Numbered from the stretch's first letter, positions 4,200 through 28,099 are shown. The stretch: 32,000 nt of DNA from Nostoc punctiforme PCC 73102 (GCF_000020025.1 NC_010628.1:5430001-5462000), one strand, 5' to 3'. Made by a program: numbers and translations. Notes: generated from the letters alone by a model not told the origin.

Positions 4200-4258
4200 T
4201 CATTCGTTTATCTTCCTAACTTGCGAAAAACTGCGGGCACATCTATGCCCTTTGTCCT

Positions 4259-4442: not shown

Positions 4443-5445
4443 TAGACTTGTCGGGAAATAAGAGAGAATAGACAGCAGTGGTAGGGAAGAATGATGCTGA
4501 ATATTGAAGGTGCGCTGAAGCAAGACCGACTGTTGAGGGCATTAACTGGGTTGAACCGGAAAGCATTTGATGCCCTTTTGCCCACGTTTACCACGATGTA
4601 CCTAGATACTCAACAGGCCAAGCCTCGTCAACGTGGCCTGGGTGGAGGACGCAAAGCCCGCTTACTTACAGCCCAAGACAAATTGTTTTTCATCCTTTTC
4701 TATTTCAAATGTTATCCGACCTTTGATGTGGCGGGACTGCTCTTTGATATGCATCGCTCCCAGGCACATGAGTGGATGCATCGATTGCAGCCAATATTAG
4801 AAGCGGCTTTGGGACAGAAGATGGCGCTGCCGGAACGCCATCTCGAAAGCATTGAAGCATTTTTGTCACGCTTTCCAGGAGTGCAACGAGTGATGATTGA
4901 TGGGACAGAACGCCCAATTGCGCGACCTCAAGAAAGAGAACAACAACAACAGAATTACTCCGGTAAAAAGAAACGTCATACGCGTAAACACTTGGCGGCA
5001 GTTGATGAAACCAAACGGGTCTTGATCTTAAGCAAAGCACGAGAAGGCAAACTGCATGACAAACGTTTTCATGACGAAGATGACATTGCAGGTAGTGTGC
5101 CTGATGAAATTCCGATTGAAGTAGACTCGGGCTTTCAGGGATTACAGAAGCAGTATGACAATCTCCATCTTCCTCACAAAAAGCCCAAAGGGGGCAAGTT
5201 AAGTGACCTTCAAAAAACGGAGAATCGTCAATTGAGTCAATCCCGTGTAGTTTGCGAAAATGCCTTTGCTGGTGTGAAGCGCTACAACGCCGCCAGTGTC
5301 ATTTATCGTAATCGGATTGAAAACTTTGATGACCATTTGATGCTGACCGCAGCAGGATTATGGAACTTCTACTTGATGGCTGCTTAAGAGAATCCCAATT
5401 ACAAGACCAGCATTGCCTCACTTATCTTTTATTTCCCGACAACTC
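4443..5445 (+). mobile_element. Insertion sequence, IS5 family / PIF-Harbinger-like (DDE_Tnp_4 type), apparently intact
   Basis: Terminal inverted repeats are left (ta)gacTTGTCGGGAAATAAgag at 4443-4464 and right ctTTTATTTCCCGACAActc at 5425-5445. The core matches 16/17. TAA is directly duplicated at 4440-4442 and 5446-5448. A single transposase ORF lies inside. The left boundary is uncertain by about 2 bp. Confidence 0.8.
4491..5387 (+). CDS. Transposase, DDE superfamily (IS5/Harbinger-like)
   Basis: 298 aa with an N-terminal HTH-like region. The catalytic-triad contexts are MIDGTERPI (D), IEVDSGFQGL (D) and VVCENAFAGVKRY (E). The spacer YSGKKKRHTRKH is typical of DDE_Tnp_4 transposases. Confidence 0.85.
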   Translation: MMLNIEGALKQDRLLRALTGLNRKAFDALLPTFTTMYLDTQQAKPRQRGLGGGRKARLLTAQDKLFFILFYFKCYPTFDVAGLLFDMHRSQAHEWMHRLQPILEAALGQKMALPERHLESIEAFLSRFPGVQRVMIDGTERPIARPQEREQQQQNYSGKKKRHTRKHLAAVDETKRVLILSKAREGKLHDKRFHDEDDIAGSVPDEIPIEVDSGFQGLQKQYDNLHLPHKKPKGGKLSDLQKTENRQLSQSRVVCENAFAGVKRYNAASVIYRNRIENFDDHLMLTAAGLWNFYLMAA

Positions 5446-10692: not shown

Positions 10693-12291
10693 TTACAGCC
10701 CTACTTGCACAGGAGTGCGAGTGCGTTGCAGTTCATAATCTGCTGTTTTCAGCAGCGATCGCCCTGTCATTTCTGGTGGCTGAGGCAGTTGTAAAATCTC
10801 TAGAATTGTGGGGGCAATGTCGGATAGCTTACCATCGCTTCGCAGTTCGACATTTGTACCATATCCAGGGATTTTGACTTTCTCTCCTTCCACCAAGATA
10901 AAGGGGACTGGGTTAGTGGTGTGGGCTGTCCAGGGATTACCCCCATCATCCAGCATATACTCAGCGTTGCCATGATCGGCAGTAATAATTGTTGTACCGC
11001 CGGCTTTGATAACGCTTTCTAATAAGCGTCCTAAACAGCGATCAACTGTTTCAATTGCTGTAATGGTAGCGTCGATTTGACCAGTATGCCCTACCATATC
11101 TGGATTGGCATAGTTAATTACAACTAAAGAATACGTACCCTTTTGAATCGCAGCGATCGCAACATCTGTAACTGCTACTGCTGACATTGCTGGGGCATGG
11201 TCGTAAGTTGCTACCATCGGGCTGCTTACTAGTTCCCGATCTTCTCCAGCAAAAGGTTCCTCCAGACCCCCATTAAAGAAATAGGTGACGTGGGCATATT
11301 TTTCTGTTTCGGCGGTGCGGAACTGATTCAGACCATGATTGGCTATTACTTCTCCCAGAATATTACTGAGATTCTGCGGCTCAAAGGCTACAGCCACGGG
11401 TAAGTCTGAATCATACTGTGTAAACGTGACAAAAGACAGTGGTGTGATTTGCTGTCTTTCAAAACCATTAAAAGTGGGACTGACTAAAGCTTGAGTCAGT
11501 TGTCTGGAGCGATCGGGGCGGAAGTTGAAAAATATCACTCCATCCCCTGGTTCTATTGCACCTGGTGCAATTCGGATTGGGTTGACAAATTCATCTTTTA
11601 CCCCTTCGGCGTAAGATGCTTGCAAGATTTCCACAGCCGTGCGATTATCACCCACACCATCTTGAGTCATCACGTCGTAGGCGCGTTTGACCCGATCCCA
11701 GCGGTGATCGCGATCCATCGCGTAGTAGCGACCGCTGAGGGTGACTATGCGCCCAATTCCTGTGCGGTCTATATAATTTTGCAGCATTGTGATTGCTCTT
11801 ACACCGTCAGTTGGGGCGGTGTCACGACCATCGGTAATGGCGTGGATACAAACTTCTGGAATTTGCTGGTTTTTGGCTAAGTCAAGTAGTCCGAATAGAT
11901 GGGTAATATGCGAATGTACCCCTCCCTCAGAACAAAGCCCGACTAGATGTAGCTTGCTATTCCGAGAACGAACTTCCTGGCAAATTTTGACAAGTGCTGG
12001 GTTTAAGGCAATAGAACCGTCTTCAACCGCATCGGAGATGCGTACAAGTTCTTGCGGTACCACTCGCCCAGCACCAATGTTCAAATGACCAACTTCCGAG
12101 TTGCCCATTTGACCCTCTGGCAACCCTACGGCTTTTCCTGATGTGCGGATGAGGGTGTGCGGGTAAGCTGCCCATAAACTGTCCACAATGGGAGTTTTAG
12201 CAGCAACAATAGCGTTTCCTCGCTTTTCCTCGCAGTAGCCCCATCCGTCTAAAATGACTAGCACCACAGGAGCAACAGGTGCTTTGGTCAT
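10693..12291 (-). CDS. gpmI: 2,3-bisphosphoglycerate-independent phosphoglycerate mutase
   Basis: 532 aa. It has VVLVILDGWG, the catalytic-Ser context MGNSEVGHLNIGAGR, and the C-terminal ADHGNAE metal site. Confidence 0.95.
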   Translation of the reverse strand: MTKAPVAPVVLVILDGWGYCEEKRGNAIVAAKTPIVDSLWAAYPHTLIRTSGKAVGLPEGQMGNSEVGHLNIGAGRVVPQELVRISDAVEDGSIALNPALVKICQEVRSRNSKLHLVGLCSEGGVHSHITHLFGLLDLAKNQQIPEVCIHAITDGRDTAPTDGVRAITMLQNYIDRTGIGRIVTLSGRYYAMDRDHRWDRVKRAYDVMTQDGVGDNRTAVEILQASYAEGVKDEFVNPIRIAPGAIEPGDGVIFFNFRPDRSRQLTQALVSPTFNGFERQQITPLSFVTFTQYDSDLPVAVAFEPQNLSNILGEVIANHGLNQFRTAETEKYAHVTYFFNGGLEEPFAGEDRELVSSPMVATYDHAPAMSAVAVTDVAIAAIQKGTYSLVVINYANPDMVGHTGQIDATITAIETVDRCLGRLLESVIKAGGTTIITADHGNAEYMLDDGGNPWTAHTTNPVPFILVEGEKVKIPGYGTNVELRSDGKLSDIAPTILEILQLPQPPEMTGRSLLKTADYELQRTRTPVQVGL

Positions 12292-12512: not shown

Positions 12513-14198
12513 CTATTTCCTTTTGGTGGAAGCTTTTGCAGCTTTCTTAGCAGCTTTTTCGGCAGCGATCGCAGCTAACTTTGCTTGTTCTTTTTCTTCG
12601 GCAATTTTCTGGAGATAGTAATGATAGTCTCCTAAGTAAACGCGGAATTCACCATCACGAATTTCGACGATTTTATTAGCTACTTGAGAAATAAAGTAGC
12701 GATCGTGAGAAACTACAATTGCCGTCCCATCATAATTTTTGAGCGCTTCTTCCAGCATTTCTTTCGCTGGAATATCTAGGTGGTTTGTCGGCTCATCTAA
12801 AATTAGTAAGTTCGCGGGACGTAAGAGCATTTTTGCCAACGCCAAACGAGCTTTTTCTCCTCCACTTAATGCCCCAACTGCCTTAAATACAGTATCACCA
12901 GTGAATAAGAAGCGTCCCAAAAGCGTGCGGACTTCTTGATTATCCCAGTCTGGAACTTCATCATGGATAGTTTCCATGACAGTTTTCTTCAAGTCCAAGG
13001 CTTCAGCTTGATTTTGCTCAAAGTAACCAGGAATAACGTTGTGATCCCCTAGTTGAACGCTACCTTCCGTGGGTGGTTCCATGCCCATAATTACGCGCAG
13101 AAGGGTAGATTTTCCAGCACCGTTGGGTCCAAGAAAAGCAATGCGATCGCCTCTTTCAATTAGCAGATTTGCTGCCAAAAACAGGATTTTATCACCATAA
13201 AGATGAGTTAAATCTTTAATGTCCACTACCTCGCGTCCACTGCGGGGTGCAGGCGGAAAACGGAAGTGTAGAGTTCTTACCCCAGCGATAGGTGCTTCAA
13301 TGCGCTCAATTTTGTCGAGTTGCTTTTCCCGGCTTTTTGCCTGGGTACTGCGGGTAGCACTAGCGCGGAATCTATCAACAAAGGTTTGCTGTTTCTCTAA
13401 TTCTTTCTGTTGGCGTTCGTAAGCACTCAGTTGTGCTGATTGACTTTCGGCTTTTTGTTCCAAATATGCTGAGTAGTTACCAAGGTAGGTACTGGAAACA
13501 CCACGTTCAGTTTCCACAATTTGGGTACAGAGGCGGTCAAGGAACTCCCGGTCATGGGAGACTATTACCATCGGCGTAATTAGCCCTCTGAGGTAATTTT
13601 CCAACCACTCAATGGTTTCTAAATCTAGGTGGTTAGTCGGTTCATCCAGCAGCAACAAGTCGGGTTTTTGCAGGAGAATTTTACCTAAACTCATCCGCAT
13701 TTGCCAACCACCACTGAAGGCACTGACGAGGCGATCGCCATCTTCTAGCCCAAACCCCATCTCTGGTAAAATTTTCCCGATGCGTGCATCTAAGTTGTAG
13801 CCATCCAAGGCTTCAAATTTGCGCTGCAAGCGATCCAACTTGTCGATCAGTCGATCCAGTTCCTCTGGGCTAGCCGTTTCCATTTCTTGTGGGATGTGCG
13901 CCAGAGATAACTGTACTTCGTTGGCTTCTTTAAAGACAGTCCAAAATTCTTCTCTAACGGTGCGGGTGGGGTCTACTTCAAACTCTTGGTTGAGGTAGGC
14001 TATATGTAAGCTATTAGGACGGATAATTTCGCCTGCGGTGGGTTCCATTTCCCCAGAAATGATCTTTAACTGGGTAGATTTGCCAGCACCGTTGACACCG
14101 ACTAAGCCAATGCGATCGCCTGGTTTAACTTCCCAGTTGATATCTTTGAGAACTTCGCCTGTGGGATAAATTTTACTTATATGTTCTAGTCGCAGCAT
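12513..14198 (-). CDS. ABC-F family ATPase (soluble, translation-associated type; no TM domain)
   Basis: 561 aa with two ABC cassettes. Walker A motifs are GVNGAGKST and GPNGAGKST. Signature motifs are FSGGWQMR and LSGGEKAR. There is an inter-domain linker and a Lys/Ala-rich C-terminal tail. Confidence 0.9.
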   Translation of the reverse strand: MLRLEHISKIYPTGEVLKDINWEVKPGDRIGLVGVNGAGKSTQLKIISGEMEPTAGEIIRPNSLHIAYLNQEFEVDPTRTVREEFWTVFKEANEVQLSLAHIPQEMETASPEELDRLIDKLDRLQRKFEALDGYNLDARIGKILPEMGFGLEDGDRLVSAFSGGWQMRMSLGKILLQKPDLLLLDEPTNHLDLETIEWLENYLRGLITPMVIVSHDREFLDRLCTQIVETERGVSSTYLGNYSAYLEQKAESQSAQLSAYERQQKELEKQQTFVDRFRASATRSTQAKSREKQLDKIERIEAPIAGVRTLHFRFPPAPRSGREVVDIKDLTHLYGDKILFLAANLLIERGDRIAFLGPNGAGKSTLLRVIMGMEPPTEGSVQLGDHNVIPGYFEQNQAEALDLKKTVMETIHDEVPDWDNQEVRTLLGRFLFTGDTVFKAVGALSGGEKARLALAKMLLRPANLLILDEPTNHLDIPAKEMLEEALKNYDGTAIVVSHDRYFISQVANKIVEIRDGEFRVYLGDYHYYLQKIAEEKEQAKLAAIAAEKAAKKAAKASTKRK

Positions 14199-14353: not shown

Positions 14354-14689
14354 TCAAGGCTGACTTTGTGCTACTTGTCTAACTTCTTCGACACTGAAAT
14401 CAAATGCCTCAGCCACTTGTTCCACTGTCACCCCAAATTTCAACAAAGTGGGTATTAATTTTAATTTGGCTCTACGCTCCCCTATTTGGATGCCATCATG
14501 ATAGAGTTTCGCATTTTGAACTTGGTTTATAGTTAAACCGAATCCCTCCGCAACCTGCTCAATAGTTAACGCTAAATCTAATAAACGAGGTACTGATTGC
14601 CGTAAACCTTCCAAACGCCCTTCTTCAAATGCTTCTTGATAAATTTTTGTATCTTTGAAACTCATAGTTCCTATATTGTAGTCCACCAA
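14354..14689 (-). CDS. Small protein made of two tandem copies of the Rpn-family C-terminal module
   Basis: Both halves resemble the last ~65 aa of the upstream nuclease: TKIYQEAFEEG...LTIEQVAEGFGLTINQVQ and ...VTVEQVAEAFDFSVEEVRQ, compared with TRFYQEAFQEG...LTVEQVAQALDLSVEQVRQ. The TTG at 14687-14689 sits 8 nt after AAGGAG. An alternative ATG is at 14663-14665. The ORF is in the same frame as 14717..15526 and is separated from it only by a TAG plus 9 sense codons. Confidence 0.6.
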   Translation of the reverse strand: MVDYNIGTMSFKDTKIYQEAFEEGRLEGLRQSVPRLLDLALTIEQVAEGFGLTINQVQNAKLYHDGIQIGERRAKLKLIPTLLKFGVTVEQVAEAFDFSVEEVRQVAQSQP

Positions 14690-14716
14690 TTCCTCTACTC
14701 CTTGATCATAAGAATC

Positions 14717-15526
14717 CTACTGCTCGGCTTGTCTGACTTGTTCGACACTCAAATCTAGCGCCTGTGCTACTTGTTCTACAGTCAACCCGGCTGCCAACAT
14801 TGCTGGTACTGCTCTGAGTTTACCTTGTTCAATGCCTTGAACCTTACCTTGTTCAATGCCTTGTTCAACACCCTCCTGAAAGGCTTCCTGATAAAATCTG
14901 GTTTGCTTTAACTCGCTTAAGCCAAACATTTGCTGCATCTCCTCCCTACTCATTGTGGGAAACTTATAAGCCAAAATAGTCTCTATAAATTGTAATAATT
15001 GCTGCTGTTTTGGTGGTGAATTTATCTCAGACTTCGTTCTATCTATCAACTCCCTTGCTTGGACAATTGCGATATCGTCGGTTGCAATTACTAATTTAGC
15101 AGTTGCAATGCCAATTGGAAGCGATGCACCTTCACCTAATTCATCCAAATAAATGCGTTTGACGCGCCCACTTGTGAAAAACTCACGGTAATGTTTGATA
15201 TTGCCTGTATCTACATTCCTGTTTGGGTATAAAACCACAGCACCCCAGTCATTCGATGGTTGATTTTGACGGAGGTATAAACATATTTCTGCAATTAGCC
15301 GTGAATAAATTTCCCCATCAGCTTGAAATTGCACTTCAACAAAGTAAATCTGGTTTTCGCTTCCTTGCGTAGGCAGAAACACACCATCGATTCTGAAGGC
15401 TGTTTGTTTGATTTCAACTGATGAAAATTGATAAAGACTAGCTTCTTCTGGAGGATTACCAATAAGTTCAAAGAAGATATCAGGAAATTCTTGAAACAGC
15501 CGATAAAAGATGATGTCTGTTTTCAC
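14717..15526 (-). CDS. Rpn-family (YhgA-like / cyanobacterial DUF2887-type) PD-(D/E)XK nuclease, putative transposase-like
   Basis: The N-terminus MKTDIIFYRLFQEFPDIFFELIG is characteristic of the family. The nuclease core is FRIDGVF...YFVEVQFQ. The start codon is GTG. Confidence 0.8.
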   Translation of the reverse strand: MKTDIIFYRLFQEFPDIFFELIGNPPEEASLYQFSSVEIKQTAFRIDGVFLPTQGSENQIYFVEVQFQADGEIYSRLIAEICLYLRQNQPSNDWGAVVLYPNRNVDTGNIKHYREFFTSGRVKRIYLDELGEGASLPIGIATAKLVIATDDIAIVQARELIDRTKSEINSPPKQQQLLQFIETILAYKFPTMSREEMQQMFGLSELKQTRFYQEAFQEGVEQGIEQGKVQGIEQGKLRAVPAMLAAGLTVEQVAQALDLSVEQVRQAEQ

Positions 15527-15576
15527 AATTTTATATGATTTTAAAATCTTGATTTGCTGTTCATAATATTACTTTA

Positions 15577-16059
15577 TTATTCAGAACCATCTCGCACTTT
15601 CAGCAATTGCTCTTTTGCCATCCCTAATATACGTGATAAGGGAGATAACAAACTATCATCAAATGTTTCTCCAGCATAAATATTATTCAGTTCAGTCGGA
15701 GATAATTTAAAGGTATCGCAGAACTTAGCAAACTCTTGGTTACTCAAGTCAAGCTCTTTTTGCCTATCCTGAAGTAAAACTGCGATCGCTCTAGTTCCAT
15801 GCTTCGGCCGCTCACTAGTTTTCACATATTTTTCCATTAAATAATTGACTTTTCTGGTATCGCCACCGACTTTTTTAATTAAATCAGTACAAGCCATTTT
15901 TAGAGCTTTCTTTAAAACTTCCTCTTCATTTAAAGTTTTAATAATTTCACTGGCATATTCTGGTTTAAAAAATCCCACCAAATTACCTTGATGATAAACT
16001 GGTATATAAGGATTATTCGTTTCAAGTTGCCAATCTAAAGGCTCATTGCGTAGAGACAT
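15577..16059 (-). CDS. Hypothetical protein with possible C-terminal HTH
   Basis: 160 aa from the ATG at 16057-16059. The C-terminal segment LDLSNQEFAKFCDTFKLSPTELNNIYAGE looks XRE-like. It is co-directional with the nuclease gene and lies 50 nt upstream of it. Confidence 0.5.
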   Translation of the reverse strand: MSLRNEPLDWQLETNNPYIPVYHQGNLVGFFKPEYASEIIKTLNEEEVLKKALKMACTDLIKKVGGDTRKVNYLMEKYVKTSERPKHGTRAIAVLLQDRQKELDLSNQEFAKFCDTFKLSPTELNNIYAGETFDDSLLSPLSRILGMAKEQLLKVRDGSE

Positions 16060-16156
16060 AGCTGCACCCCTAAATATTTTAAGATTGCACCATTTTAAAA
16101 CCATTTATTGTTTAACTGCCAGTAAAATACCCTATCACTGGCGATTAGAAATCGCA

Positions 16157-16230
16157 GCTATACAGACAAAACCCACCTCCGTGGGTTTCAACTTACTGGA
16201 GTCCACGCAGACGGACTTAGTTTGTGTAGC
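16157..16230. repeat. Structured small dispersed-repeat / MITE-like element
   Basis: There are two internal hairpins. One is aaacccac-ctcc-gtgggttt at 16169-16188. The other is gagtcc-acgcagac-ggactt at 16199-16218. They are bracketed by the imperfect inverted flanks gctatacagacaaa and tttgtgtagc. Translation gives the SVGF...TQTDLVCVA type of spurious ORF often seen for cyanobacterial repeats. Confidence 0.45.
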
Positions 16231-16497
16231 CATTACGTATTTCTACCAGAACCTCTAACTCAGCCAAAATTAGCGATCGCCAAGTGAATCAATGCGATTC
16301 TACTACTCACACGCCTAGTTTTGTGATTTGTATTCTTCAAAAATTATCACAGTAGGTTCTAGGTATCGATCTAATAGAGGACGATCGGATATATCAGGTA
16401 ATACTAATTCGACTGCCATAGTGGTTTCCATTACTCAACCACGATCTTCTCCATCTTTAAAAGCTGCGATAGAACCCCATAATAGAAATATTATTAA

Positions 16498-17091
16498 TTA
16501 CTTATCAAATCGCAGATGAAGAATATCTCCTATAACGCCAATTATATCTGGTTTAATACCAAAGAAAGATGGTTTAACTTCTACATATTTGTTTAACCAA
16601 TACCATGAGGTTTTCCATTCTTGCTTATCTACAAAATTATTGGTAGTACTACTATTAATAGATGATGAAAGTTGTCTCATGAAATTAACAAGGGCATCTT
16701 TACCACTATTGTCTACTTTTTCAAGGAAATCTGCTGAAAATATAACTAAATTAATATCTTCAGCATTTATTTTTTTGCTAGAAGATTCATCAATTTCTGA
16801 AGGTAAACGATTACATAATACTAATGCTGGTAATCTGGTATCTTTAAGTCTAGGCTGTCCTGTTTTGGGAGCTATTTCTCCTAATTTACTGTCTATTACA
16901 CTATTATAAAAGGACAAGTTATCATGCCCTTTTACAGCCAAATCTTTTAGACCAATATTTGTGGCAAAAGTATCATAATGCTTTAAAAGTTTTTTTGATA
17001 ATTCACCATTCCAGTCATCCATTAAGAAAAAGATATAGCTATTAAAACCATTGCTAGAAACTGTAGTTATATTTGCTGCTTTAAAACCCAT
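16498..17091 (-). CDS. Hypothetical protein (AT-rich orphan gene)
   Basis: 197-aa ORF with an ATG start. I recognise no motif. Both the gene and its ~300-nt upstream region are visibly more AT-rich than the flanks. Confidence 0.5.
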   Translation of the reverse strand: MGFKAANITTVSSNGFNSYIFFLMDDWNGELSKKLLKHYDTFATNIGLKDLAVKGHDNLSFYNSVIDSKLGEIAPKTGQPRLKDTRLPALVLCNRLPSEIDESSSKKINAEDINLVIFSADFLEKVDNSGKDALVNFMRQLSSSINSSTTNNFVDKQEWKTSWYWLNKYVEVKPSFFGIKPDIIGVIGDILHLRFDK

Positions 17092-17389
17092 AACACCTAC
17101 TCCTATTTTTTTAATTTGATTTGATTTTCTATTTGTTGAGTCAAATTTGAGAGTTAATAATATTATTTTTTTCGAGTTATTTTAACCGATTCAAATACTT
17201 TGATTGTCTCTTTAAAAATACCTGTCCTGGGGAATGACTATGGTACTCTTTATTTTTTATTTATAAACACCCTCTTAGAGAATTGGTATAACTAACTTGA
17301 AGTAAAACTTGTAAGTATATAATTTTTTTCACCTCGTTCTACTTAAGGTATCTCCAAATAACAAATGGGCTTCATAAAAATGGTAGTAA

Positions 17390-17848
17390 TTATCCTTCCC
17401 AGTCTTGACAAGTATCGCACAAAAAATTGTCTGCGATCGCATCATCAAATAAATAAGGGCAAAGCTCTGGAAAAGTTCGTAATGGTAAGTTAGTTTCTCG
17501 TAGCGCCAAATCCACTCCCGCTTCAAAGCCATCTAACAAGGCTTCTTCTATTCGAGACTTTAAGCTAGGGTTCTGCCGCAAATGCCTATTGATGGCGCGG
17601 CGCTGTTCTCGAATTGTTAAAAACCAACTGCGACAACGTTGTTCGGGTTGATACTCCCACTTCAAGAGATGACCGAGTAATACACTCAGACGACTCACGA
17701 GTTCCCGATACTCCTGTCTCCCCAAAGCTTGAATTTCCTCTTGCAGGTGTTGCCAGTCTAGTTCCATAACTAGCCTCTGCTCTAACGCTTTAGCCTGCTG
17801 CTGTGTCCAGCCATAGAAATCTTGGTCATACAAAAAAGGTTTGTCCAT
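17390..17848 (-). CDS. DUF29 domain-containing protein
   Basis: LYDQDFYGWTQQQAKAL...LQEEIQALGRQEYRELVSRLSVLLGHLLKWEYQPEQRCRSW is the typical cyanobacterial DUF29 pattern. I prefer the ATG at 17846-17848 because the track ORF begins at a TTG. Confidence 0.8.
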   Translation of the reverse strand: MDKPFLYDQDFYGWTQQQAKALEQRLVMELDWQHLQEEIQALGRQEYRELVSRLSVLLGHLLKWEYQPEQRCRSWFLTIREQRRAINRHLRQNPSLKSRIEEALLDGFEAGVDLALRETNLPLRTFPELCPYLFDDAIADNFLCDTCQDWEG

Positions 17849-17895
17849 AGATTTGAACCTTGACAACAAGAAACCACGAGCTAGTTAAAAAACTT

Positions 17896-17921
17896 AATTA
17901 CGAATTACGAATTACGAATTA
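17896..17921. repeat. Tandem heptamer (AATTACG) x about 3.7
   Basis: The sequence is aattacg aattacg aattacg aatta. It lies in the spacer between the XRE and DUF29 genes. Confidence 0.85.
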
Positions 17922-17930
17922 TTTTAATAT

Positions 17931-18293
17931 TCAACTTGCTTTTGCTTCATCCCCAGATGCTTCAGCCACAGCCGCCAATCTATCTGCCGCAGCTTGGACA
18001 ATTTGAGCCACTTGAGCCAAAGGCATGTGCTGGATTTGTCTAAGAATCAGACTCAAATCTGAGGTTTCTGGAATTGGCTTGCCATCTATGCAGCTGATTA
18101 ACTCTTCCATTGTGTAGCCTGCTTTCGATGCGATTCGAGCCAAATTTTCTGTATCTGGAACCTTCACACCTTTTTCCCACATCTGAACAGCAGTAGCAGA
18201 TACCCCCAAAAGCTTACCAAATGCTCGCTGACTCATTGAACCGCGAGCTAGTTTAATGATTTCAATCAGTTTTTGTTTGCTTTCGATCTTCAC
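17931..18293 (-). CDS. XRE-family helix-turn-helix transcriptional regulator
   Basis: The N-terminal HTH is LIEIIKLARGSMSQRAFGKLLGVSATAVQMWEKGVKVP. The GTG start at 18291-18293 preserves helix 1. The Ala-rich C-terminal half has unknown function. Confidence 0.8.
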   Translation of the reverse strand: MKIESKQKLIEIIKLARGSMSQRAFGKLLGVSATAVQMWEKGVKVPDTENLARIASKAGYTMEELISCIDGKPIPETSDLSLILRQIQHMPLAQVAQIVQAAADRLAAVAEASGDEAKAS

Positions 18294-18989: not shown

Positions 18990-20087
18990 TTAGTTAGCGG
19001 CAGAAGTCGCTAACTCCGCCAGACGTTCCTGTTGGTCTAGAGATATACAAGACTGGATAAGTGTCTCTAAATCACCATCCAAAACAGGGGTAAGGGAATA
19101 ATTCTGACCTAACCGATGATCGGTAGCGCGGTTATCTTTATAATTATAGGTGCGAATTTTTTCCGATCGCGATCCAGTACCAACCTGCGATCGCCGCATC
19201 GAAGTTACAGCTGCTTGTTGTTCGCCTAACTTGATGTCATACAACTTTGCCCGCAGAATTTGCATCGCCCGTTCTTTGTTTTGCAACTGGCTGCGTTCTT
19301 CTGTACAGAAAATGCGTATTCCTGTCGGTTTGTGCATTAAGTCAACGGCTGTTTCCACCTTGTTGACATTTTGTCCACCAGCACCACCAGAACGGGCTGT
19401 AGTCATTTCAATATCTTTCGGGTCAATATGAATTTCCACATCATCGACCTCTGGCATAATCGCCACCGTAGCTGTGGAAGTATGAACCCGTCCCCCAGAT
19501 TCAGTTGCCGGCACGCGCTGCACACGATGCACTCCAGCTTCAAACTTTAGCTGGCTATAAACGTCATTACCTTTAATTTCGAGAATGACTTCTTTCCAGC
19601 CGCCCATTTCTCCACGAGATTCGCTCACTAGAGAAACTTTCCAACCTTGAGTCTGGGCATAGCGGGTGTACATCTGCATCAAATCGCCAGCCCAAATACT
19701 TGCTTCATCGCCACCAGTACCAGCGCGAATTTCCAACATGATATTCTTTTCATCATTGGGGTCGCGTGGTAGCAGCAAGACTTTCAAGCGAGACTCTAAA
19801 TGTTCTATTTTTTCTTCAAGTTCTTTTACTTCCAGTGATGCCATTTCTTGCAACTCTGGGTCGCTCGCAGATTCTTTATAAACCTCACGCGCTCCGATCA
19901 AGTCTTCTTGGGCTGTTTTCCAAATTTCATAAGTATTAACTACCTCTTCCAAAGAAGAACGAGACTTAGCAATTTCTTGATACTCATCAGGATTGCTAGC
20001 GGTATCGGGGTCGCCTAGACGACGTGTTAATTCATTAAAAGTTTGTTCAACGGATTTTAGTTTATCCAGTAAGTATGATTCAGCCAT
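18990..20087 (-). CDS. prfA: Peptide chain release factor 1
   Basis: 365 aa. It carries the RF1-specific PAT tripeptide ([14 protein letters not shown]) and the GGQ motif ([16 protein letters not shown]). Confidence 0.95.
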
Positions 20088-20191
20088 GACGAGTGCGATC
20101 GCTCCTTAAAAAAATAACAAATTGGCTCGAGCATATAAATGACAATCGACCCAGCTGATGCAGGGCCGTCGTTAACAGCAGAGCCAACCCG

Positions 20192-20434
20192 CTACTTTTT
20201 GGTTTGTTCGTCGCCAGATGTTTGAGTGCTGCTCATACCGTACTTGCGGAGGAAGCGCTCTACTCGACCCTCAGTGTCAATAATCTTCTGAGTACCGGTG
20301 TAAAAGGGGTGATTTCCAGACCAAACGTCTACATGCAATTCTGGCTTGGTAGAGCCAATGGTCATAACAACTTGACCGTTGCAGTAAACTTTAGCATCTG
20401 GATACCACTTGGGGTGAATATCAGCTTTAGCCAT
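20192..20434 (-). CDS. rpmE: 50S ribosomal protein L31
   Basis: MAKADIHPKWYPDAKVYCNGQVV... is a typical L31 N-terminus. I use the ATG at 20432-20434 instead of the longer track ORF. Confidence 0.9.
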   Translation of the reverse strand: MAKADIHPKWYPDAKVYCNGQVVMTIGSTKPELHVDVWSGNHPFYTGTQKIIDTEGRVERFLRKYGMSSTQTSGDEQTKK

Positions 20435-20513
20435 TGTTCTTTTTGTGATGAATCTATATAAATTATAACTTTCAGCGTTCAATTGCAGCTAGGGAGTGGA
20501 GACTGGGAAAGAT

Positions 20514-20535
20514 GCCCCATGCCCCCATACCCAAT
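20514..20535. repeat. CCCCAT-type heptamer repeats (about 3 units)
   Basis: gccccat gcccccat acccaat in the rpsI-rpmE spacer. This is the same word family as the recO tract and as 25643-25656 (inverted). Confidence 0.6.
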
Positions 20536-20538
20536 GTC

Positions 20539-20955
20539 TTATCGCTTAGAGTACTGAGGCGCTTTCCGAGCTTTATGTAAACCATATTTCTTCCGCTCTT
20601 TTGCTCTCGGATCGCGAGTCAAATAACCTTCGGTTTTCAAAGGTGGGCGGTTGTCTGGATCGAGTTGGCACAAAGCACGAGCAACTCCTAAACGAACAGA
20701 ATCAGCCTGTCCGGTCAAACCGCCGCCTTCTGCTTTTACCAAAATGTCATATTCGTTTTCTAGTCCCAGAGTTTCCAGGGGTGCTTTAATTACTCCCAGG
20801 TAGTTGGGGTTAAATTGGAAATACAAGTTTCCATCTTTACCGTTCACAGTCAGTTGGCCGGTGCCTGGAACCAAGCGTACCCTTGCTACTGCATTCTTAC
20901 GACGGCCAGTGCCCCAGTATACGGCGCGACCGCTATTGGCATCTGCTACTACCAT
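20539..20955 (-). CDS. rpsI: 30S ribosomal protein S9
   Basis: The C-terminus [14 protein letters not shown] and the internal [16 protein letters not shown] are S9 hallmarks. Confidence 0.95.
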
Positions 20956-21416
20956 TAATTTTCTTCTCCAGGAATTGTACTAACTTTTAGTTCTTTAGGT
21001 TTTTGAGCATCATGTGGATGCGTAGGCCCAGCGTAAACTTTCAGCTTGGTGAACAACTGCTTACCCAGGCTATTTTTAGGTAGCATACCTTTAACAGCTT
21101 GTTCTAAGATCCGCTCTGGTATACGGTCTTGCAGTTTCGCGAAAGTTTCCGTTTTCATCCCACCGGGACGACCAGAATGGCGGCGGTAAAGCTTTTGAGT
21201 GCGCTTTTTGCCTGTAACTGCTACTTTCTCGGCATTGATGACGATTACGAAGTCACCTGTATCTAGGTGGGGTGTATATTCGGGTTTCTTTTTGCCTCTC
21301 AATACCTGAGCGATTTCGCTGGCGAGGCGACCGAGGCGTTTATCGGTGGCATCTACTATGTACCACTCACGCTCAAGTGTTGCTTGAGAAGGAAGGTATG
21401 TTTTAACTGTTGTCAT
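20955..21416 (-). CDS. rplM: 50S ribosomal protein L13
   Basis: [35 protein letters not shown] is L13-like. The stop overlaps the rpsI ATG by 1 nt. The start ATG lies in a heptamer unit (ttgtcat). Confidence 0.9.
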
Positions 21417-21518
21417 TTGTCATTTGTCCTTTGTCATTTTTAATTTGTCATTAGTCATTTGTCTTTTGTCATTTGTAGTTACTAAAAACCAATGACTAAT
21501 GACTCTTGACTAGTGACG
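21410..21518. repeat. Two-armed heptamer array (STRR-type) at the truA-rplM junction
   Basis: The left arm has about 10 units of TTGTCAT-like sequence (21410-21479). The right arm is aatgact aatgact cttgact agtgacg (21491-21518). The right arm encodes the last residues of TruA. Confidence 0.85.
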
Positions 21519-22330
21519 AACTTTGGCAAGGTGTCGTACCAAATCTCTTTTGGAAAAGGGAAATCGGGATAGCCGACTCGCAACAAGCACAAACCTTGAG
21601 GCGGTGCGGCATATTTCACTTCTTCTCGGCGTTGTTCTTTCCAGAGTTCGGTGAAGCTAGAAAGTGTTCGTTGTCCAGAACCTACTTCTACCAGCATCCC
21701 TACCAACAGCCGTACCATGCCATACAAAAATCCATCTGCCTGTATTTCAATATGGATAAATGGCCCACTGCGACGACACTCTACTGCTTGCACCTCTACC
21801 CAGGAATGGGATCGCTTTGAGCCTGCACGGTGAAAAGCAGCTAAGTGATGCTTTCCCAAGAGAGGTTTCAAGGCAGCTTGGATTAAAGATTCATCCAGGG
21901 GTGCATAATAATAATGCCAACTGAAGGGTCTTACAAACAAGTTAAGCCGATCTTCAGTATATATTGTGTAGCGATACCGTCGATAGGCTGCACTAAAGCG
22001 AGCGTGCCAACGGTTATCGACACTAGCTGAAGCCCTGATTAATATATCTGGCGGCAGGTAGCTGTTGAGGATTGTTGCCCACTTGTGAGGCGGAATTAAA
22101 CCTGTTGCTTCAAAATGGGCTACTTGAGCAGCAGCGTGAACTCCAGAATCGGTTCGCCCAGCACCGTGTAATGTTACATGATGCCCAAGAATAGTAGCGA
22201 TCGCTGTTTCGATCTCTTCTTGGACTGTCCGGTGTTGTTTTTGCCTTTGCCAGCCATGAAAATGAGTGCCCAGGTATTGGATTACCAAGGCTACTCGATG
22301 AGTTTGTGTAGGCTGGTGGCTTTCTAACAT
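21482..22330 (-). CDS. truA: tRNA pseudouridine(38-40) synthase TruA
   Basis: It has the catalytic-Asp context GAGRTDSGVHAAAQV and YLGTHFHGWQRQ. I prefer the ATG at 22328-22330 because AAAGGA lies 10 nt upstream. The track start at 22351 (MTKDK...) lies inside the repeat array. Confidence 0.85.
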   Translation of the reverse strand: MLESHQPTQTHRVALVIQYLGTHFHGWQRQKQHRTVQEEIETAIATILGHHVTLHGAGRTDSGVHAAAQVAHFEATGLIPPHKWATILNSYLPPDILIRASASVDNRWHARFSAAYRRYRYTIYTEDRLNLFVRPFSWHYYYAPLDESLIQAALKPLLGKHHLAAFHRAGSKRSHSWVEVQAVECRRSGPFIHIEIQADGFLYGMVRLLVGMLVEVGSGQRTLSSFTELWKEQRREEVKYAAPPQGLCLLRVGYPDFPFPKEIWYDTLPKFVTSQESLVIGF

Positions 22331-22336
22331 ACAGAT

Positions 22337-22447
22337 TTTGTCCTTTGTCATTTGTTTTTTGTCATTTGTCCTTTGTCAGTTGTCCTTTGTTATTCACTAA
22401 TGACCAATGACTAATGACTAATGACCAATAACCAATGACTAAATGAC
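22337..22447. repeat. Two-armed heptamer array (STRR-type) at the rplQ-truA junction
   Basis: There are 8 left units of TTTGTC(C/A) type (22337-22392), a loop ttcac, and 7 right units of (T/C)AATGAC type (22398-22447). The array ends at the rplQ stop codon. Confidence 0.9.
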
Positions 22448-22798
22448 TTAAACCAATTCAATTATTGCCATTTTTGCATTATCGCCCCGACGCGGTACGG
22501 TATGCAGAATGCGGGTATAACCGCCCTGGCGATCGCCATATCGAGTTGGAACTTGCTCAAATAGAGCGTGAACCAATTGTTTGTCGAAGATATAGCCAAG
22601 GGCTTCGCGGCGTGCTGCCAAGGAGCCATTTTTGGCTAGGGTAATCATTTTTTCCACTTCACTTCTTAGAACTTTCGCTCTAATTAAAGTGGTGGTGATC
22701 TTACCATGACGGATCAGCTCGGTGGTGAGCGATCGCAGTAAAGCACGGCGTTGATCGGCTGGTTTACTGAGTTTTTTGACGCGACAACGGTGACGCAT
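22448..22798 (-). CDS. rplQ: 50S ribosomal protein L17
   Basis: [37 protein letters not shown] is the canonical L17 N-terminus. Confidence 0.95.
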
Positions 22799-22829
22799 AA
22801 TTATCCACTATGAATTATGAAGGTTTTTC

Positions 22830-23777
22830 TTAAGGGTGTTTAGAGCCTCTTTCCATTGGCAGGGTAATGCCCAAGCGTCGCTGCAAAGCTTCCACGACTT
22901 CTTCTGCTGACTTCTGACCAAAGTTCTTAATTTCTAAGAGGTCTTCTTGGGTATAATCCAACAAATCTGCCACAGAGTTAACTTGTGCCCGTTTGAGACA
23001 GTTATATGCCCGCACAGAAAGTTGCAACTCTTCGATGGGTATCTGGGCAGTTGGATCATCTGGAATATCTGAACCTGTGTCTGTTGGTTCCAAGGAGATA
23101 TCTTTCAACGGGTTGAATAAATCTACCAAGATCCCAGCAGCCGAAGATAGTGCTTCTTGAGGAGAAATACTGCCATTTGTCCAAACTTCCAACAGTAGTC
23201 GGTCTTTTGGAATCAAGCCTTCTCCACGAGATTCTTCAACACTATAGTTGACTTTTCGCACTGGCATAAATATTGAGTCGATTTGAAGAAAATCCAACGA
23301 TGTGGCTTCCTCACGTCCTCTTTCTACAGTGCGATAGCCTTTGCCTTTCTCGATCCGAAATTCCATTTCCAGTTTTCCACCCTCAGCGATGGTGGCAACA
23401 TACTGAGTCGGATCGATAACTTCTACTTCACTAGGTAAATCAAAATGTGCCGCAGTAATTGTTGTTGGACCACTAACGAGTAATCTACCAATCTGAGGCT
23501 GCGAAGAATAGTTCTTCAGGATAACTTCCTTCATTCTCATGAGGATTTCCAGCACATCTTCCCGCACGCCCGGAACTGTGGCGAATTCATGTGAAACGCC
23601 TGCAATCCGCACTGCTGTAACTGCTGTACCTTCTAGGTTAGACAGTAAAACCCGCCGTAGTGCGTTGCCAACCGTTGTTCCTTGACCGCGTTCTAGAGGT
23701 TCCAGAACAAATTTACTGTAATGGTTCCGACTTTCTTCAGTATTCGACTCTACACATTCAATCTGAAACTGCGCCAC
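22830..23777 (-). CDS. rpoA: DNA-directed RNA polymerase subunit alpha
   Basis: 315 aa. The N-terminal domain has GTTVGNALRRVLLS and the C-terminal domain has ELQLSVRAYNCLKRAQVNSVADLL. The start codon is GTG. Confidence 0.95.
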   Translation of the reverse strand: MAQFQIECVESNTEESRNHYSKFVLEPLERGQGTTVGNALRRVLLSNLEGTAVTAVRIAGVSHEFATVPGVREDVLEILMRMKEVILKNYSSQPQIGRLLVSGPTTITAAHFDLPSEVEVIDPTQYVATIAEGGKLEMEFRIEKGKGYRTVERGREEATSLDFLQIDSIFMPVRKVNYSVEESRGEGLIPKDRLLLEVWTNGSISPQEALSSAAGILVDLFNPLKDISLEPTDTGSDIPDDPTAQIPIEELQLSVRAYNCLKRAQVNSVADLLDYTQEDLLEIKNFGQKSAEEVVEALQRRLGITLPMERGSKHP

Positions 23778-24104
23778 GGATGAGCCTCCCTTTTTCTAAG
23801 GTGCTGCTAGCAGACAAATCAATTGCCTCCCGAATTGACTTTATGTCCTGTAGGTTATAGGTCTATCAAACTATTAGTATGAAATTACGGTATAGTTTGA
23901 CGCTCCTATTGAGCTTTCAGGCGCTAATAATATTTTGGGTTTCCGAAGTTTAACAGCTTTCCCTACAGGAAAATCTGATTCACTTTTGGTGGTCCAAGTT
24001 TTCACCCAATGACAGTTTGCACGTTATCCGCCCAAGCGGTCATTGTAAGTAAATTTACTTTCTTTGGTTGTAGCTTCTCGTCCTCAATGCCCAAGTCTTG
24101 GTAT

Positions 24105-24500
24105 TTAAACTCGACGGCGCTTGGGTGGACGGCAGCCATTGTGAGGAATGGGGGTAATATCCCGAATGAGTGTAATTTCCAGTCCTGCTCCTTGAAGTGC
24201 GCGGATAGCGGTTTCTCTACCTGCTCCTGGCCCACTTACCATTACCTCAATTTGGCGCATTCCTTGATCTATAGCTCTACGGGCTGCACTTTCAGCAGCA
24301 GTTTGCGCTGCAAAGGGAGTTCCCTTTTTTGCTCCCTTAAAACCGCTAGAACCAGCGCTGGCCCAGGAGATGACATCTCCATTTTGATCGGTAATGGTGA
24401 CAATGCTATTGTTGAAAGTAGACTGGATGTAGGCCATCCCGCTGGGTACGTTCCGTTTCTGCTTCTTGCTCCCGGATTTTTTAGTTGGTTGTCTCGCCAT
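24105..24500 (-). CDS. rpsK: 30S ribosomal protein S11
   Basis: [30 protein letters not shown]...[16 protein letters not shown] is S11-like. Confidence 0.95.
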
Positions 24501-24554
24501 ACTTGTTTAGTTGATTTAAGGTAAAACTTGCTCTGATTAGCAAGCGTTGCAAAT

Positions 24555-24935
24555 TTATTTCCCTGGAGCCTTCTTCTTCCCAGCCACTGTCTGCCTTCTG
24601 CCTCGACGGGTTCTGGCATTGGTGCGAGTTCTTTGTCCTCTGACTGGTAAGCCCATGCGATGACGACGACCTCTGTAAGTACCAATGTCAACTAAGCGCT
24701 TGATGTTCAAAGACTCCAAACGCCGCAAGTCGCCTTCAACTTGATAGTTGCTTTCTATTTCGCCTCGCAGGGCTGTCACATCGGCATCACTTAAGTCCTT
24801 AACGCGGGTGTCTGGATTCACACCAGTAGCCGCTATAATTTCTTGAGCGCGTGATAAACCAATTCCGTAGATATAAGTTAGACCGATTTCAACGCGCTTA
24901 TCGCGTGGAAGGTCTACTCCGGCAATCCGTGCCAC
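24555..24935 (-). CDS. rpsM: 30S ribosomal protein S13
   Basis: [26 protein letters not shown] is S13-like. The start codon is GTG. Confidence 0.95.
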
Positions 24936-25052
24936 AATGAACTCTCCCTATTGTTTTCGCAATTACTGTTGGTTGGAAAAACGTGATTAATCGCGTTTTT
25001 TCGTTGTTAATTGATGATATGCGTGTTACAACTCACTCTCTTTGTAAGAGCG

Positions 25053-25166
25053 TTATCCTTGACGTTGCTTGTGCTTGGGGTTCACGCAGATCACCATGAC
25101 GCGACCACGACGTTTGATCACGCTACACTTTTCACAAATTTTCTTGACTGAGGCTCTAACTTTCAT
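25053..25166 (-). CDS. rpmJ: 50S ribosomal protein L36
   Basis: This ORF is too short to appear in the track. My manual translation of the minus strand gives [37 protein letters not shown] (37 aa), which is canonical L36. Confidence 0.9.
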
Positions 25167-25289
25167 GCCTTTTATTTTTTGACTCCAAATATTAAATTAT
25201 AGCATTTTTAGAGAAAACAATCCATTAATTTGACTAGCAAACAGTCAAAAGGATGATTTTATGGTAAAATTCTCTACATCTACATATAG

Positions 25290-25514
25290 TTACTTCTTTC
25301 GTAGTCGATAGGTAATTCTGCCTTTGGTCAAGTCATAAGGAGTTAACTCTACCTTGACGCGATCGCCGGGCAAAATCTTGATATAGTTGCGGCGAATCTT
25401 GCCGGAAATGTGAGCTAGCACGTTAAATCCATTGTCCAAGTCAACGCGAAACATCGCATTGGGCAAGGACTCTGTAACCGTGCCTTCCATTTCAATCAAA
25501 TCTTGCTTAGACAA
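25290..25514 (-). CDS. infA: Translation initiation factor IF-1
   Basis: [29 protein letters not shown]...RITYRLRKK is IF-1-like. The codon at 25512-25514 is TTG. Confidence 0.95.
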
Positions 25515-25705
25515 TTTGTTTTTTCCTCAACTCAACAATTTCGTGTTCAGTTGCAGCACTTCATCTGCAAGAGAACACATTTTAAGAAATATATCAACAG
25601 TTTATTAATATATCTTAGCTAAAATTGATCTGTTTCTTGGGAGGGGCATGGGACATTAGGAATTGGGGAAAGAATTGCTGTAGCTCCTCCCCTACTCCCC
25701 GATCC

Positions 25706-26257
25706 TCAAGCGATTACCTTTTGCAGTTCAGTAGTGACTTCTTCTTGGGACTGATTGCCATTGACTGTTAAAAGTTTTTGGCGATCGCGATAATAATCAA
25801 TTAAAGGTGCAGTTTCAGCGCGGTACACTTCTAACCGACGACGAATCACCTCTTCGGTATCATCTTTTCGCCCTCTAGCTAACAAACGTTCTACCACAAC
25901 ATCATCTGGTGCATCTAGATTAACTACCCTTTCGCCACTCTGATGTATTGTTTCCAGCAATTCTTCTAGAAAAGCTGCTTGCGTCACTTTACGGGGAAAA
26001 CCATCAAGAATCCAACCATTTTCTGCATCTGGTTGGTTGAGGCGCTCCTGTACCAAGTCCTGCACTAGCTGATCGGGTACTAACTCGCCGCTATTTACAT
26101 AGTTTTGAGCTTTGATTCCCAGATGAGTTTGCTCTTTCATAGCTTGTCTTAATATTTCCCCAGTAGAAATATGGGGAATATTTAAGTGTCCCGCCAATGA
26201 TTGAGCTTGTGTTCCCTTACCAGCTCCAGGTGGTCCCAAGAAGATTAGTCGCGTCAC
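25706..26257 (-). CDS. adk: Adenylate kinase (short type)
   Basis: It has the P-loop [11 protein letters not shown]. The GTG start overlaps the secY stop by 1 nt. Confidence 0.95.
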
Positions 26258-27570: not shown

Positions 27571-27644
27571 AGAGTGCTACCTTTATAGTGAACCAGGCGC
27601 TGACAGCGAGTTGGCTTACATTTAAGTGCGCTGTTCCGGCTCAC

Positions 27645-28088: not shown

Positions 28089-28099
28089 AAGTTACCAAG

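Follow-up and report, generated by a model that had tools for sequence, protein, structure and literature searches.

A two-module RpnS-like gene beside a DUF2887-branch Rpn nuclease gene in Nostoc, a candidate accessory antitoxin

Rpn nucleases are widespread toxin-antitoxin and antiphage systems, the control of which is only starting to be understood. The locus described here lies on the minus strand of a 32,000-nucleotide stretch of the Nostoc punctiforme PCC 73102 chromosome (NC_010628.1, 5430001-5462000; hereafter the window), and consists of a gene for an Rpn-family nuclease followed by a small gene that encodes two further copies of the nuclease's own C-terminal module in one chain. The closest described systems are the rpn genes of E. 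coli and C. difficile, which are gene-within-gene toxin-antitoxin systems (Zhong et al. 2023, PNAS, PMC10400941). In these systems the C-terminal domain is also produced alone, by internal initiation; this product, RpnS, associates with full-length RpnL at a ratio of 2:2 and inhibits the nuclease. The long first helix of RpnS contains four-amino-acid repeats that differ between strains and determine specificity, and E. coli RpnS blocks RpnL only when the two have equal repeat numbers (PMC10400941). An earlier reading of the window from sequence alone (the sequence-only reading) had pointed to this arrangement of toxin and internal-start antitoxin in E. coli, in agreement with the published account.

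The same study describes separate downstream genes for RpnS, termed rpnSs, such as ypaA (rpnE_Ss) and rpnC_Ss, each of which arose independently from its own upstream gene (PMC10400941). An rpnSs gene can disappear through deletion, or through a fusion that joins the N-terminal domain to its coding region; separately encoded RpnS genes are equated in some species with DUF4351 proteins, and the role of the separate copies is documented as protein expression only (PMC10400941). In E. coli K-12 (NC_000913.3, 2356904-2358001; L084 6905-8002), rpnE ends ...NCH-TAA and is followed in frame by KERL, a copy of the codons before the rpnE internal Met, and then by AAGGAG 7 nucleotides (nt) before the ATG of ypaA, a gene that RefSeq calls a pseudogene and that encodes a 61-amino-acid copy of the rpnE tail with one repeat (KLEG) different. 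The Nostoc locus is laid out in the same way, with a small gene directly 3' on the same strand, homologous to the C-terminal domain of the upstream gene from which it was copied, and a stop, short in-frame linker, AAGGAG and start between the two. The separately encoded antitoxin copy proposed by the sequence-only reading is thus real as a layout but not new, having been published as rpnSs (PMC10400941). Differences from ypaA and rpnC_Ss lie in the product, which has two modules and 110 amino acids rather than the 61 of YpaA and shows no four-residue repeat variation, in the lineage, which is the cyanobacterial DUF2887 branch, and in age, the Nostoc gene having been kept since before the split of Nostoc and Desmonostoc. 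What is new is therefore two modules in one chain, maintained in the Nostoc/Desmonostoc lineage under purifying selection and with coupled integrity, rather than a downstream RpnS copy as such; no downstream gene with two modules in one chain is described in the earlier study (PMC10400941). The locus is a doubled variant of a known safety catch and defines no new category. Its main features are these:

14717..15526 (-): rpnL-like gene for a 269-amino-acid Rpn-family PD-(D/E)XK nuclease, the putative toxin; GTG start, TAG stop
14717-14719 (-): TAG stop of the nuclease gene
14924..15520 (-): N-terminal nuclease domain and helical linker, residues 3-201, the extent of the DUF2887 match
14939..14947 (-): AGGGAGGAG, codons R194-E195-E196, a Shine-Dalgarno (SD)-like element 9-11 nt before the M200 ATG
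14720..14929 (-): putative gene-within-gene rpnS, from the invariant M200 to Q269, the nuclease's own C-terminal module
14823..14868 (-): 12-nt tandem repeat, 3.8 copies (Tandem Repeats Finder), encoding the four-amino-acid repeats (V/I)(E/Q)QG(I/K)
14690..14716 (-): 27-nt linker of nine in-frame sense codons, DSYDQGVEE, with AAGGAG at 14698-14703
14354..14689 (-): rpnSs-like small gene, 110 or 111 amino acids, two RpnS-like modules in one chain, matching TIGR01784
14510..14659 (-): module 1, FKDTKIYQEAFEEG...LTIEQVAEGFGLTINQVQNA, which retains the conserved head of the RpnS long helix
14357..14509 (-): module 2, KLYHDGIQIGERRAKLKLIPTLLKFGVTVEQVAEAFDFSVEEVRQVAQSQP, which retains the conserved helix-turn-helix (HTH)-like tail and the ancestral 3' end of the gene

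The small open reading frame (ORF), which ends at the TGA at 14354-14356, scores above the curated cut-off of NCBIfam model TIGR01784 (Rpn family recombination-promoting nuclease; cut-off 52.1 bits) by itself, at 56.7 bits and E 3e-15, and the C-terminal end of the model is matched twice. By BLASTP, the C-terminus of the nuclease is 39% identical to module 1 over 61 amino acids (nuclease residues 206-266) and 54% identical to module 2 over 39 (residues 230-269), while the two modules are 32% identical to each other over 44; pairwise E-values range from 1e-13 to 7e-10. This similarity far exceeds chance, and the claim that the small ORF consists of two tandem copies of the nuclease's C-terminal module stands, by profile as well as by pairwise alignment. 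MAFFT wrongly placed homologues of the small ORF on the nuclease's own module. A word-indexed search with the small ORF returned a single nuclease-type match, the tail of its own orthologue (P0019). The Pfam model for DUF4351, PF14261, matched neither the small ORF nor the nuclease tail at E 10, and it missed the positive control, E. coli YpaA, as well; the model evidently does not cover these branches. Many relatives of the module, 50-100 amino acids long, occur in metagenomes, and in this they resemble the stand-alone DUF4351 small proteins.

The protein encoded by the small gene has 18 close homologues (67-96% identity), all from Nostoc or Desmonostoc and annotated as hypothetical proteins. 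Among 16 intact Nostoc copies the ratio of nonsynonymous to synonymous substitution rates (dN/dS; Nei-Gojobori) is 0.29, compared with 0.25 for the nuclease tail and 0.13 for the nuclease N-terminal domain; with Desmonostoc added it is 0.32 (bootstrap 95% confidence interval 0.20-0.50), and between the window and Desmonostoc dS is 0.47 and dN 0.16. The small ORF is a real, conserved gene under purifying selection, and is not decaying freely. Its product is 110-112 residues long, 102-104 from S10, in all 17 copies, and varies by no four-residue steps; it is thus unlike the single RpnS-sized protein of about 50-60 residues with variable repeats that is typical of rpnSs. A 68-residue, one-module deletion form was seen once (P0017). 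Two allelic classes were noted among the homologues (P0004, P0008-P0012 and L017), marked by ...EGLRQSVPRLLDLAL... and ...EGLRLVQTAPHLFDLGL..., the latter 2 residues longer and with several changes in module 1.

Assignment of the 269-residue protein to the Rpn family, also made in the sequence-only reading, is borne out by a full-length match to TIGR01784 (residues 2-266, E 4e-67, 226.9 bits), by a match to Pfam PF11103, DUF2887 (E 3e-83, 279 bits), and by a PD-(D/E)XK core in which D47, E64 and Q68 are invariant, and Q66 nearly so, among 47 homologues. Its AlphaFold2 model (mean predicted local distance difference test score, pLDDT, 81) has an alpha/beta core, and the best PDB neighbours found by Foldseek, EndoMS, BamHI and Nt.BspD6I, are proteins of the restriction-endonuclease fold, at weak E-values of 0.03-0.3. 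Searching the PDB by sequence gave a designed 'CAP repeat' protein as the sole match, on the HTH segment. PADLOC gave no Rpn-type match, only a weak 'putative invertase' on the tail and weak HTH matches, and PHROGs gave a 'transposase' family match confined to the tail. In cyanobacterial annotation, Rpn/DUF2887 genes still frequently go under the name of transposase or FliH. An Rfam scan of the window gave no match. Three homologues of 332-358 amino acids (P0171, P0182 and P0263) have the first 60-95 residues of the nuclease domain partly duplicated in tandem, so the family duplicates at its 5' end as well as at its 3' end.

The nuclease gene itself carries the signals of an internal antitoxin gene. 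The Met codons noticed earlier ahead of its module, M192 (14951-53), M197 (14936-38) and M200 (14927-29), are placed as described, and all of the 47 homologues compared, at 66-96% identity, have M200. In a scan of species-representative genomes that yielded about 60 orthologous loci, 59 of 60 have a GGAG, GAGG or AGGA motif 5-18 nt 5' of the M200 codon, among them relatives with 42-55% identity, and the codons AGG-GAG-GAG precede M200 in 42 of 60. Neither codon is a common choice: across six genes of the window, AGG is used for 5% of Arg residues and GAG for 25% of Glu residues. The M200 ATG is lost only in L038 and L047, both of them pseudogenes, and 42 of 133 small database relatives begin at the equivalent M[LF]xL motif. 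The nuclease gene very probably also encodes, from M200, a 70-residue RpnS-like protein identical to its own tail. As M200 and its upstream GAGGAG are kept in 59 of 60 loci, the small gene would supplement this intragenic antitoxin and not replace it.

The described RpnL/RpnS systems (RpnA-E, RpnP2 and C. difficile Rpn) resemble the Nostoc nuclease in their TIGR01784 PD-(D/E)XK N-terminal domain, their conserved internal Met with an SD-like element, and a C-terminal module of one long and two short helices bearing four-residue repeats. These begin about 20 residues past M200 in Nostoc, and 8-20 residues past the internal Met in E. coli Rpn proteins (PMC10400941). Intact orthologues next to the small gene are 265, 269, 273, 277, 281, 285 or 289 residues long and those without it 264 to 280, all length steps being of 4 residues; variation among strains in four-residue repeats of the first helix of the C-terminal domain, a hallmark of Rpn proteins, is thus found here as well. 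The repeat segment is of low confidence in the nuclease model (pLDDT below 50 at residues 218-232). More distant relatives have other repeat units, such as about ten QEV(R/K) in L041, a Stigonema metagenome-assembled genome (MAG), and a further one in L052. The signals of gene-within-gene coding, namely the invariant Met, the rare-codon SD and the four-residue repeat accordion, are hereby extended to cyanobacteria.

On the balance of this evidence and of what follows, the locus is probably, though by no means certainly, an Rpn-type toxin-antitoxin or defence nuclease of the cyanobacterial DUF2887 branch with an extra, doubled antitoxin-like gene that acts as an accessory antitoxin. Like RpnS, the two-module protein would bind the nuclease at its C-terminal oligomerisation domain, lowering nuclease toxicity as an accessory to the internal RpnS. 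Binding and antitoxin activity are the most likely properties of the small protein, by analogy with RpnS. Its AlphaFold2 model, built from a 15-sequence alignment (pLDDT 77), shows two units, each of one long and two short helices (10-37, 42-49 and 53 onward; 53-83, 88-95 and 99-108), the last helix of the first unit continuing into the long helix of the second. With a profile of the small-protein family, hhalign aligned module 2 to residues 9-48 of the 49-residue RpnA_S crystal structure 7TH0 (probability 77%, E 2e-5). The compact three-helix unit with a long first helix that characterises the RpnS fold is therefore present in the small protein, in the model and in the module 2 alignment alike.

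The state of the small gene also goes together with that of the nuclease gene. Unlike the genes of the described RpnL/RpnS systems, the orthologous nuclease gene is often a pseudogene, broken at 19 of about 50 loci by nonsense codons at varied positions, frameshifts, N-terminal deletions or an insertion element. The loci divide as follows:

Small gene intact: 18 loci, nuclease broken in 1 (L022)
Small gene broken or partly deleted: 6 loci, nuclease broken in 4
Small gene absent (single-module form): 26 loci, nuclease broken in 13

Only 1 of the 18 loci that have the small gene intact has a nuclease pseudogene, compared with 17 of the 32 others (Fisher p 0.0007, a test that ignores phylogeny). 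Within the split loci, those in which nuclease and two-module gene are separate, the nuclease is broken in 4 of 6 where the small gene is broken and in 1 of 18 where it is not (p 0.006, likewise ignoring phylogeny). Small-gene integrity tracks nuclease integrity, which is how an antitoxin-like partner should behave. The nuclease may tend to be inactivated once the small gene is lost, or a dead nuclease may free the small gene to decay or be deleted; either order of events would imply that the small gene works with the nuclease. The association is comparative evidence, the first known to us, that an rpnSs-type gene plays a part in the retention of its nuclease. Some 50 Nostoc species with the small gene present, broken or deleted at the same site amount to a natural experiment in which the state of the small gene predicts survival of the nuclease.

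At least 17 of the nuclease lesions are independent. In the 19 orthologous pseudogenes every inactivating lesion except one lies within the N-terminal domain and helical linker, and of the point lesions only one is not 5' of M200, even though 26% of the gene is tail (binomial p about 0.03, an estimate). Lesions that spare the RpnS-coding part would be what a toxin-antitoxin system predicts, since loss of the tail with an active nuclease would be harmful. Independent nonsense mutations at codons 170-179 were seen in L026, L028, L031, L061 and L065; this is the glutamine run PPKQQQLLQ, in which CAA or CAG becomes TAA or TAG, a mutational soft spot just before the internal start.

Several observations weigh against an accessory antitoxin. 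The association just given takes no account of phylogeny, and its reverse reading is that the small gene decays or is deleted neutrally once the nuclease is dead. Intact nucleases persist without the small gene in 13 genomes, and beside a broken one in L011 and L006; these genomes can thus do without the small protein, presumably by relying on the internal RpnS, and the small gene would be an accessory and not a requirement. The main difficulty is that the small protein has a fixed length against seven nuclease repeat numbers in split-type loci, while E. coli RpnS needs equal repeat numbers to inhibit (PMC10400941), which makes strictly cognate helix-to-helix pairing doubtful. Foldseek searches with the two-module model did not place 7TH0 among the top 50 and gave only local matches to small HTH proteins (2x48, the IstA HTH and a serine recombinase HTH), and weak Pfam matches of HTH type on the modules make DNA binding possible. 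Finally, toxicity, internal translation and phage defence belong to the described RpnL/RpnS systems, and the cyanobacterial lineage is known here from its genes alone. Of the duplicated antitoxin logic put forward in the sequence-only reading there thus remains a real, separately initiated gene of two modules whose integrity tracks that of the nuclease; the layout had been described already, and the function is given here by analogy.

A more specific form of the accessory-antitoxin reading, which we regard as speculative and unlikely, is that the two-module protein is a natural single-chain RpnS dimer that caps the C-terminal domains of the nuclease at any four-residue repeat number. It would then be a repeat-independent master antitoxin, leaving the repeat tract of the nuclease, and of its internal RpnS, free to diversify quickly under phage pressure without lethal mismatch, and loss of the small gene would force either tight self-matching or inactivation of the nuclease. 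RpnS is a dimer in the 2:2 complex, and the two-module form may act as a covalent one, convenient for structural and binding work.

Many antitoxins also repress their own operons, and the two-module protein could instead be mainly a DNA-binding regulator, its two HTH units working as a dimer within one chain to repress the rpn operon or another target. The HTH-family matches, weak as they are, recur on both modules (HTH_15, Sigma70_r3/r4, HTH_23, HTH_7 and Tn916 excisionase), the local structural matches are likewise to small HTH domains, and a protein of fixed length beside a nuclease with variable repeats is easier to reconcile with a DNA target than with helix-to-helix pairing. RpnS itself is related to HTH motifs by HHpred (PMC10400941). 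Even so, every one of the HTH matches falls below curated cut-offs, the homologous RpnA_S works by protein-protein contact in its 2:2 complex with RpnL, and a promoter and terminator scan gave no more sites than shuffled sequence, no search having been aimed at operator-like repeats. Co-decay with the nuclease would be equally expected of a regulator and does not discriminate. We judge a mainly regulatory role unlikely.

It is rather improbable, too, that the small protein is not a cognate partner at all and works in trans instead, its target being other Rpn paralogues or a phage factor, for instance as a decoy that titrates phage proteins directed against RpnS. Its repeat-free helix does mismatch the variable repeat number of the adjacent nuclease, and in E. 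coli such a mismatch abolishes inhibition (PMC10400941). At least one Nostoc genome has an additional Rpn paralogue (L063, found in one MAG with L017), and orphan RpnS-like arrays with no adjacent nuclease exist (L082). Yet the integrity of the small gene tracks the nuclease next to it, which is not expected of a protein whose target lies elsewhere, and both the homologue search and the genome scan found the small protein at the rpn locus only.

The comparative survey bears on how an accessory antitoxin gene of this kind could have arisen. All of the roughly 60 orthologous loci occupy one chromosomal site in Nostocales, 5' of an ABC-F ATPase gene; unlike the described RpnL/RpnS systems, this is a vertically inherited site next to abcF in heterocystous cyanobacteria and not an obvious defence island. 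The split form is found at 23 loci, including Desmonostoc muscorum, where synteny of the small gene is kept. In this form the nuclease ends ...VRQAAQ-stop and is followed by a near-invariant linker and the two-module gene, which ends ...VRQVAQSQP-stop-DRCGKFYP. At 26 loci of the single-module form the module of the nuclease runs directly into the tail of the small gene and the DNA downstream of it, the sequence changing from nuclease-like to module-2-like within a short stretch common to both modules; one deletion and many are indistinguishable from the junctions themselves. These loci resemble rpnSs genes lost by deletion or fusion. The two forms are interspersed on an abcF tree (neighbour-joining, 1.5 kb, without support values and of low resolution), and one locus of each, L047 (split) and L050 (single-module), both from Nostoc MAGs, has the same insertion of about 2.2 kb at nuclease codon 164 (L047 4491-6724, L050 4020-6298). 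The outgroups Tolypothrix, Cylindrospermum, Fischerella and Nostoc PCC 7107 have one module. The small gene of L006 has an internal deletion.

In the DNA alignment, the linker segment CAAGGAGTAGAGGAATTGGTG lies opposite nuclease CAATGAGTAG-GGAGGAGATG, that is, the SD/M197 internal-start region, so that the duplicated unit carried an internal ribosome-binding site, as in ypaA. The stop and GAT that follow the nuclease match the ancestral stop and GAT after the small gene's tail, and together with the linker alignment this points to a unit that included the stop. The small gene, to judge from this alignment and from P0019, has the rpnSs property of deriving from its own upstream gene, internal start region included. 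These alignments show its origin by duplication, the course of which would have been as follows. The 3' part of the nuclease gene, with its internal initiation region and stop, would have been duplicated in tandem in an ancestor of Nostoc and Desmonostoc; the duplicate would have become a separate downstream rpnSs-type gene, as ypaA did after rpnE in E. coli, and a further internal duplication would have put two modules into one polypeptide. Recombination between the repeated modules would then keep deleting the small gene, leaving single-module nucleases that end in its tail. The simplest history would be a single duplication before the Nostoc/Desmonostoc split, repeated loss by recombination, and occasional partial forms such as P0017 and L006.

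Against this stands the suggestion that the small ORF is a decaying remnant of a fused three-module nuclease recently split by a nonsense mutation, prompted by two ORFs in one frame with a single stop between them. Other lineages do have relatives with several modules fused (L051, whose 303 residues include 1.5 modules, P0022 and P0040). A recent split is nevertheless very unlikely: Nostoc and Desmonostoc are both split at a dS of 0.47, with a dN/dS of about 0.3, the linker, like that of rpnE-ypaA, matches the internal start region, the matching stop and GAT are ancestral, and neither a fused three-module orthologue nor a sense codon in place of the stop was found in more than 60 loci or among the top 120 protein matches. 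The longer protein matches (P0171, P0182 and P0263) owe their length to N-terminal and not C-terminal duplications.

Duplication of RpnS-like modules in tandem has recurred among cyanobacterial Rpn relatives (P0021-P0023, P0030, P0040, P0095 and L051). These are independent events with other junctions, mostly fused to a nuclease tail or on short contigs, and none is orthologous to the small gene. P0021, in L082, has two full modules in 112 amino acids, P0022 and P0040 have fused two-module tails, and P0023, P0030, P0095 and L051 have 1.5 modules. L082 (190-724, JGI metagenome 3300033081) holds an orphan RpnS-like array with no nuclease domain upstream, made up of a 52-residue one-module gene and the 112-residue gene for P0021, each after an ...EDIAAMF internal-start remnant; it adjoins a gene for a 780-residue GerE / NB-ARC / TPR protein. 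In L051, a cyanobacterial MAG (about 3909-4820), a 303-residue nuclease has a second HTH segment fused in the same ORF, and in L044 (Cylindrospermum NIES-4074, about 4800-4870) an in-frame remnant of a second HTH, SEKVAEGLDFSLEEVRGVAENQS, lies just past the stop; both are independent module duplications.

The region between the two genes is as it had first been described, with the small ORF in the frame of the nuclease beyond one TAG and nine sense codons, AAGGAG 8 nt ahead of a TTG, and an ATG further on. Candidate starts are the TTG at 14687-14689, the GTG at 14684-14686 and the ATG at 14663-14665, 21 nt (seven codons) 3' of the GTG, and the small gene would be translated from AAGGAG and the GTG/TTG, or from the ATG. 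In 20 Nostoc loci the linker hardly differs, and AAGGAG is kept in Nostoc together with a GAGGAA beside the start; in Desmonostoc GGAGGAAG lies ahead of the TTG, and the rest of the linker differs and is in another frame. AAGGAG is thus conserved in Nostoc as proposed, whereas the better-conserved start is probably not the TTG but the GTG in the codon after it, where database homologues begin MDYNIGT. Single loci point both ways: L005 has a 1-nt insertion between GTG and ATG that leaves only the ATG usable, while L016 and L023 have lost the ATG and can use only the GTG or TTG.

At 20 of the 23 split-type loci the small gene is in frame with the nuclease. A 1-nt indel relative to the parental nuclease sequence means that the linker frame is not the ancestral coding frame, and the in-frame state, to be expected by chance in 1 case in 3, is by the evidence of the orthologues inherited and not selected, reflecting a little-diverged 27-nt linker. 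The small gene thus appears to be translated independently, from its own start. Programmed readthrough of the TAG into a 380-residue nuclease isoform with three modules, to which the frame and the TAG of most split loci would otherwise be suited, is extremely unlikely, because it is not conserved (in Desmonostoc, L001, and in L005 the small ORF is out of frame though intact, the stop is TAA in L023 and L032, and L057 has TAG TAG), and because an SD and start codons are conserved within a linker whose frame is not ancestral. We know of no readthrough context in cyanobacteria.

Upstream of the nuclease gene lies one conserved neighbour:

15577..16059 (-): gene for a 160-amino-acid protein, 50 nt from the nuclease start

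The ATG at 16059 is the actual start codon of this gene, since in-frame stops in orthologues occur only upstream of it. The protein has no Pfam, NCBIfam, PADLOC or PHROG match, and one database copy is named an HTH cro/C1 protein. The gene adjoins rpn in Nostoc, Desmonostoc, Fischerella and PCC 7107, and is intact wherever fully present, including at the 15 loci with a dead nuclease that carry it; it is absent from the orthologous loci of Tolypothrix and Cylindrospermum, and in a Leptolyngbyaceae genome it stands beside a Crp-family gene with no rpn. The idea of a three-gene unit therefore does not hold in the sense of an obligate one, and the gene is probably a conserved neighbour, possibly co-transcribed, and not an obligate partner.

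Beyond it, window positions 16105-17390 vary in length and content among Nostoc genomes and may be a small variable islet; a 197-residue ORF there (16498..17091, minus strand) has no counterpart in the fetched loci and no Pfam, PADLOC or PHROG match, and the equivalent stretch of Nostoc PCC 7107 (L089) encodes an HSDR_N_2 protein and a 673-residue protein. Its far side is bounded by a pair found in most Nostocales loci (17390..18293, minus strand), an HTH_3 protein of Cro/C1 type (120 residues), with weak PADLOC matches to RmrA, CapH and control protein, and a DUF29 protein (159 residues). On the other side of the locus are abcF (12513..14198) and a gene for an iPGM-type phosphoglycerate mutase (10693..12291). 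The 365-residue ORF at 18990..20087 (minus strand) is probably prfA, from synteny with Desmonostoc (Ribosomal_S9, Ribosomal_L31, RF-1), and the run of co-directional ORFs upstream of it, within 18990-31680 of the minus strand, we take to be of ribosomal-protein/secY type. If these neighbours are so identified, the rpn locus would sit in the core chromosome and not in a recognisable mobile element.

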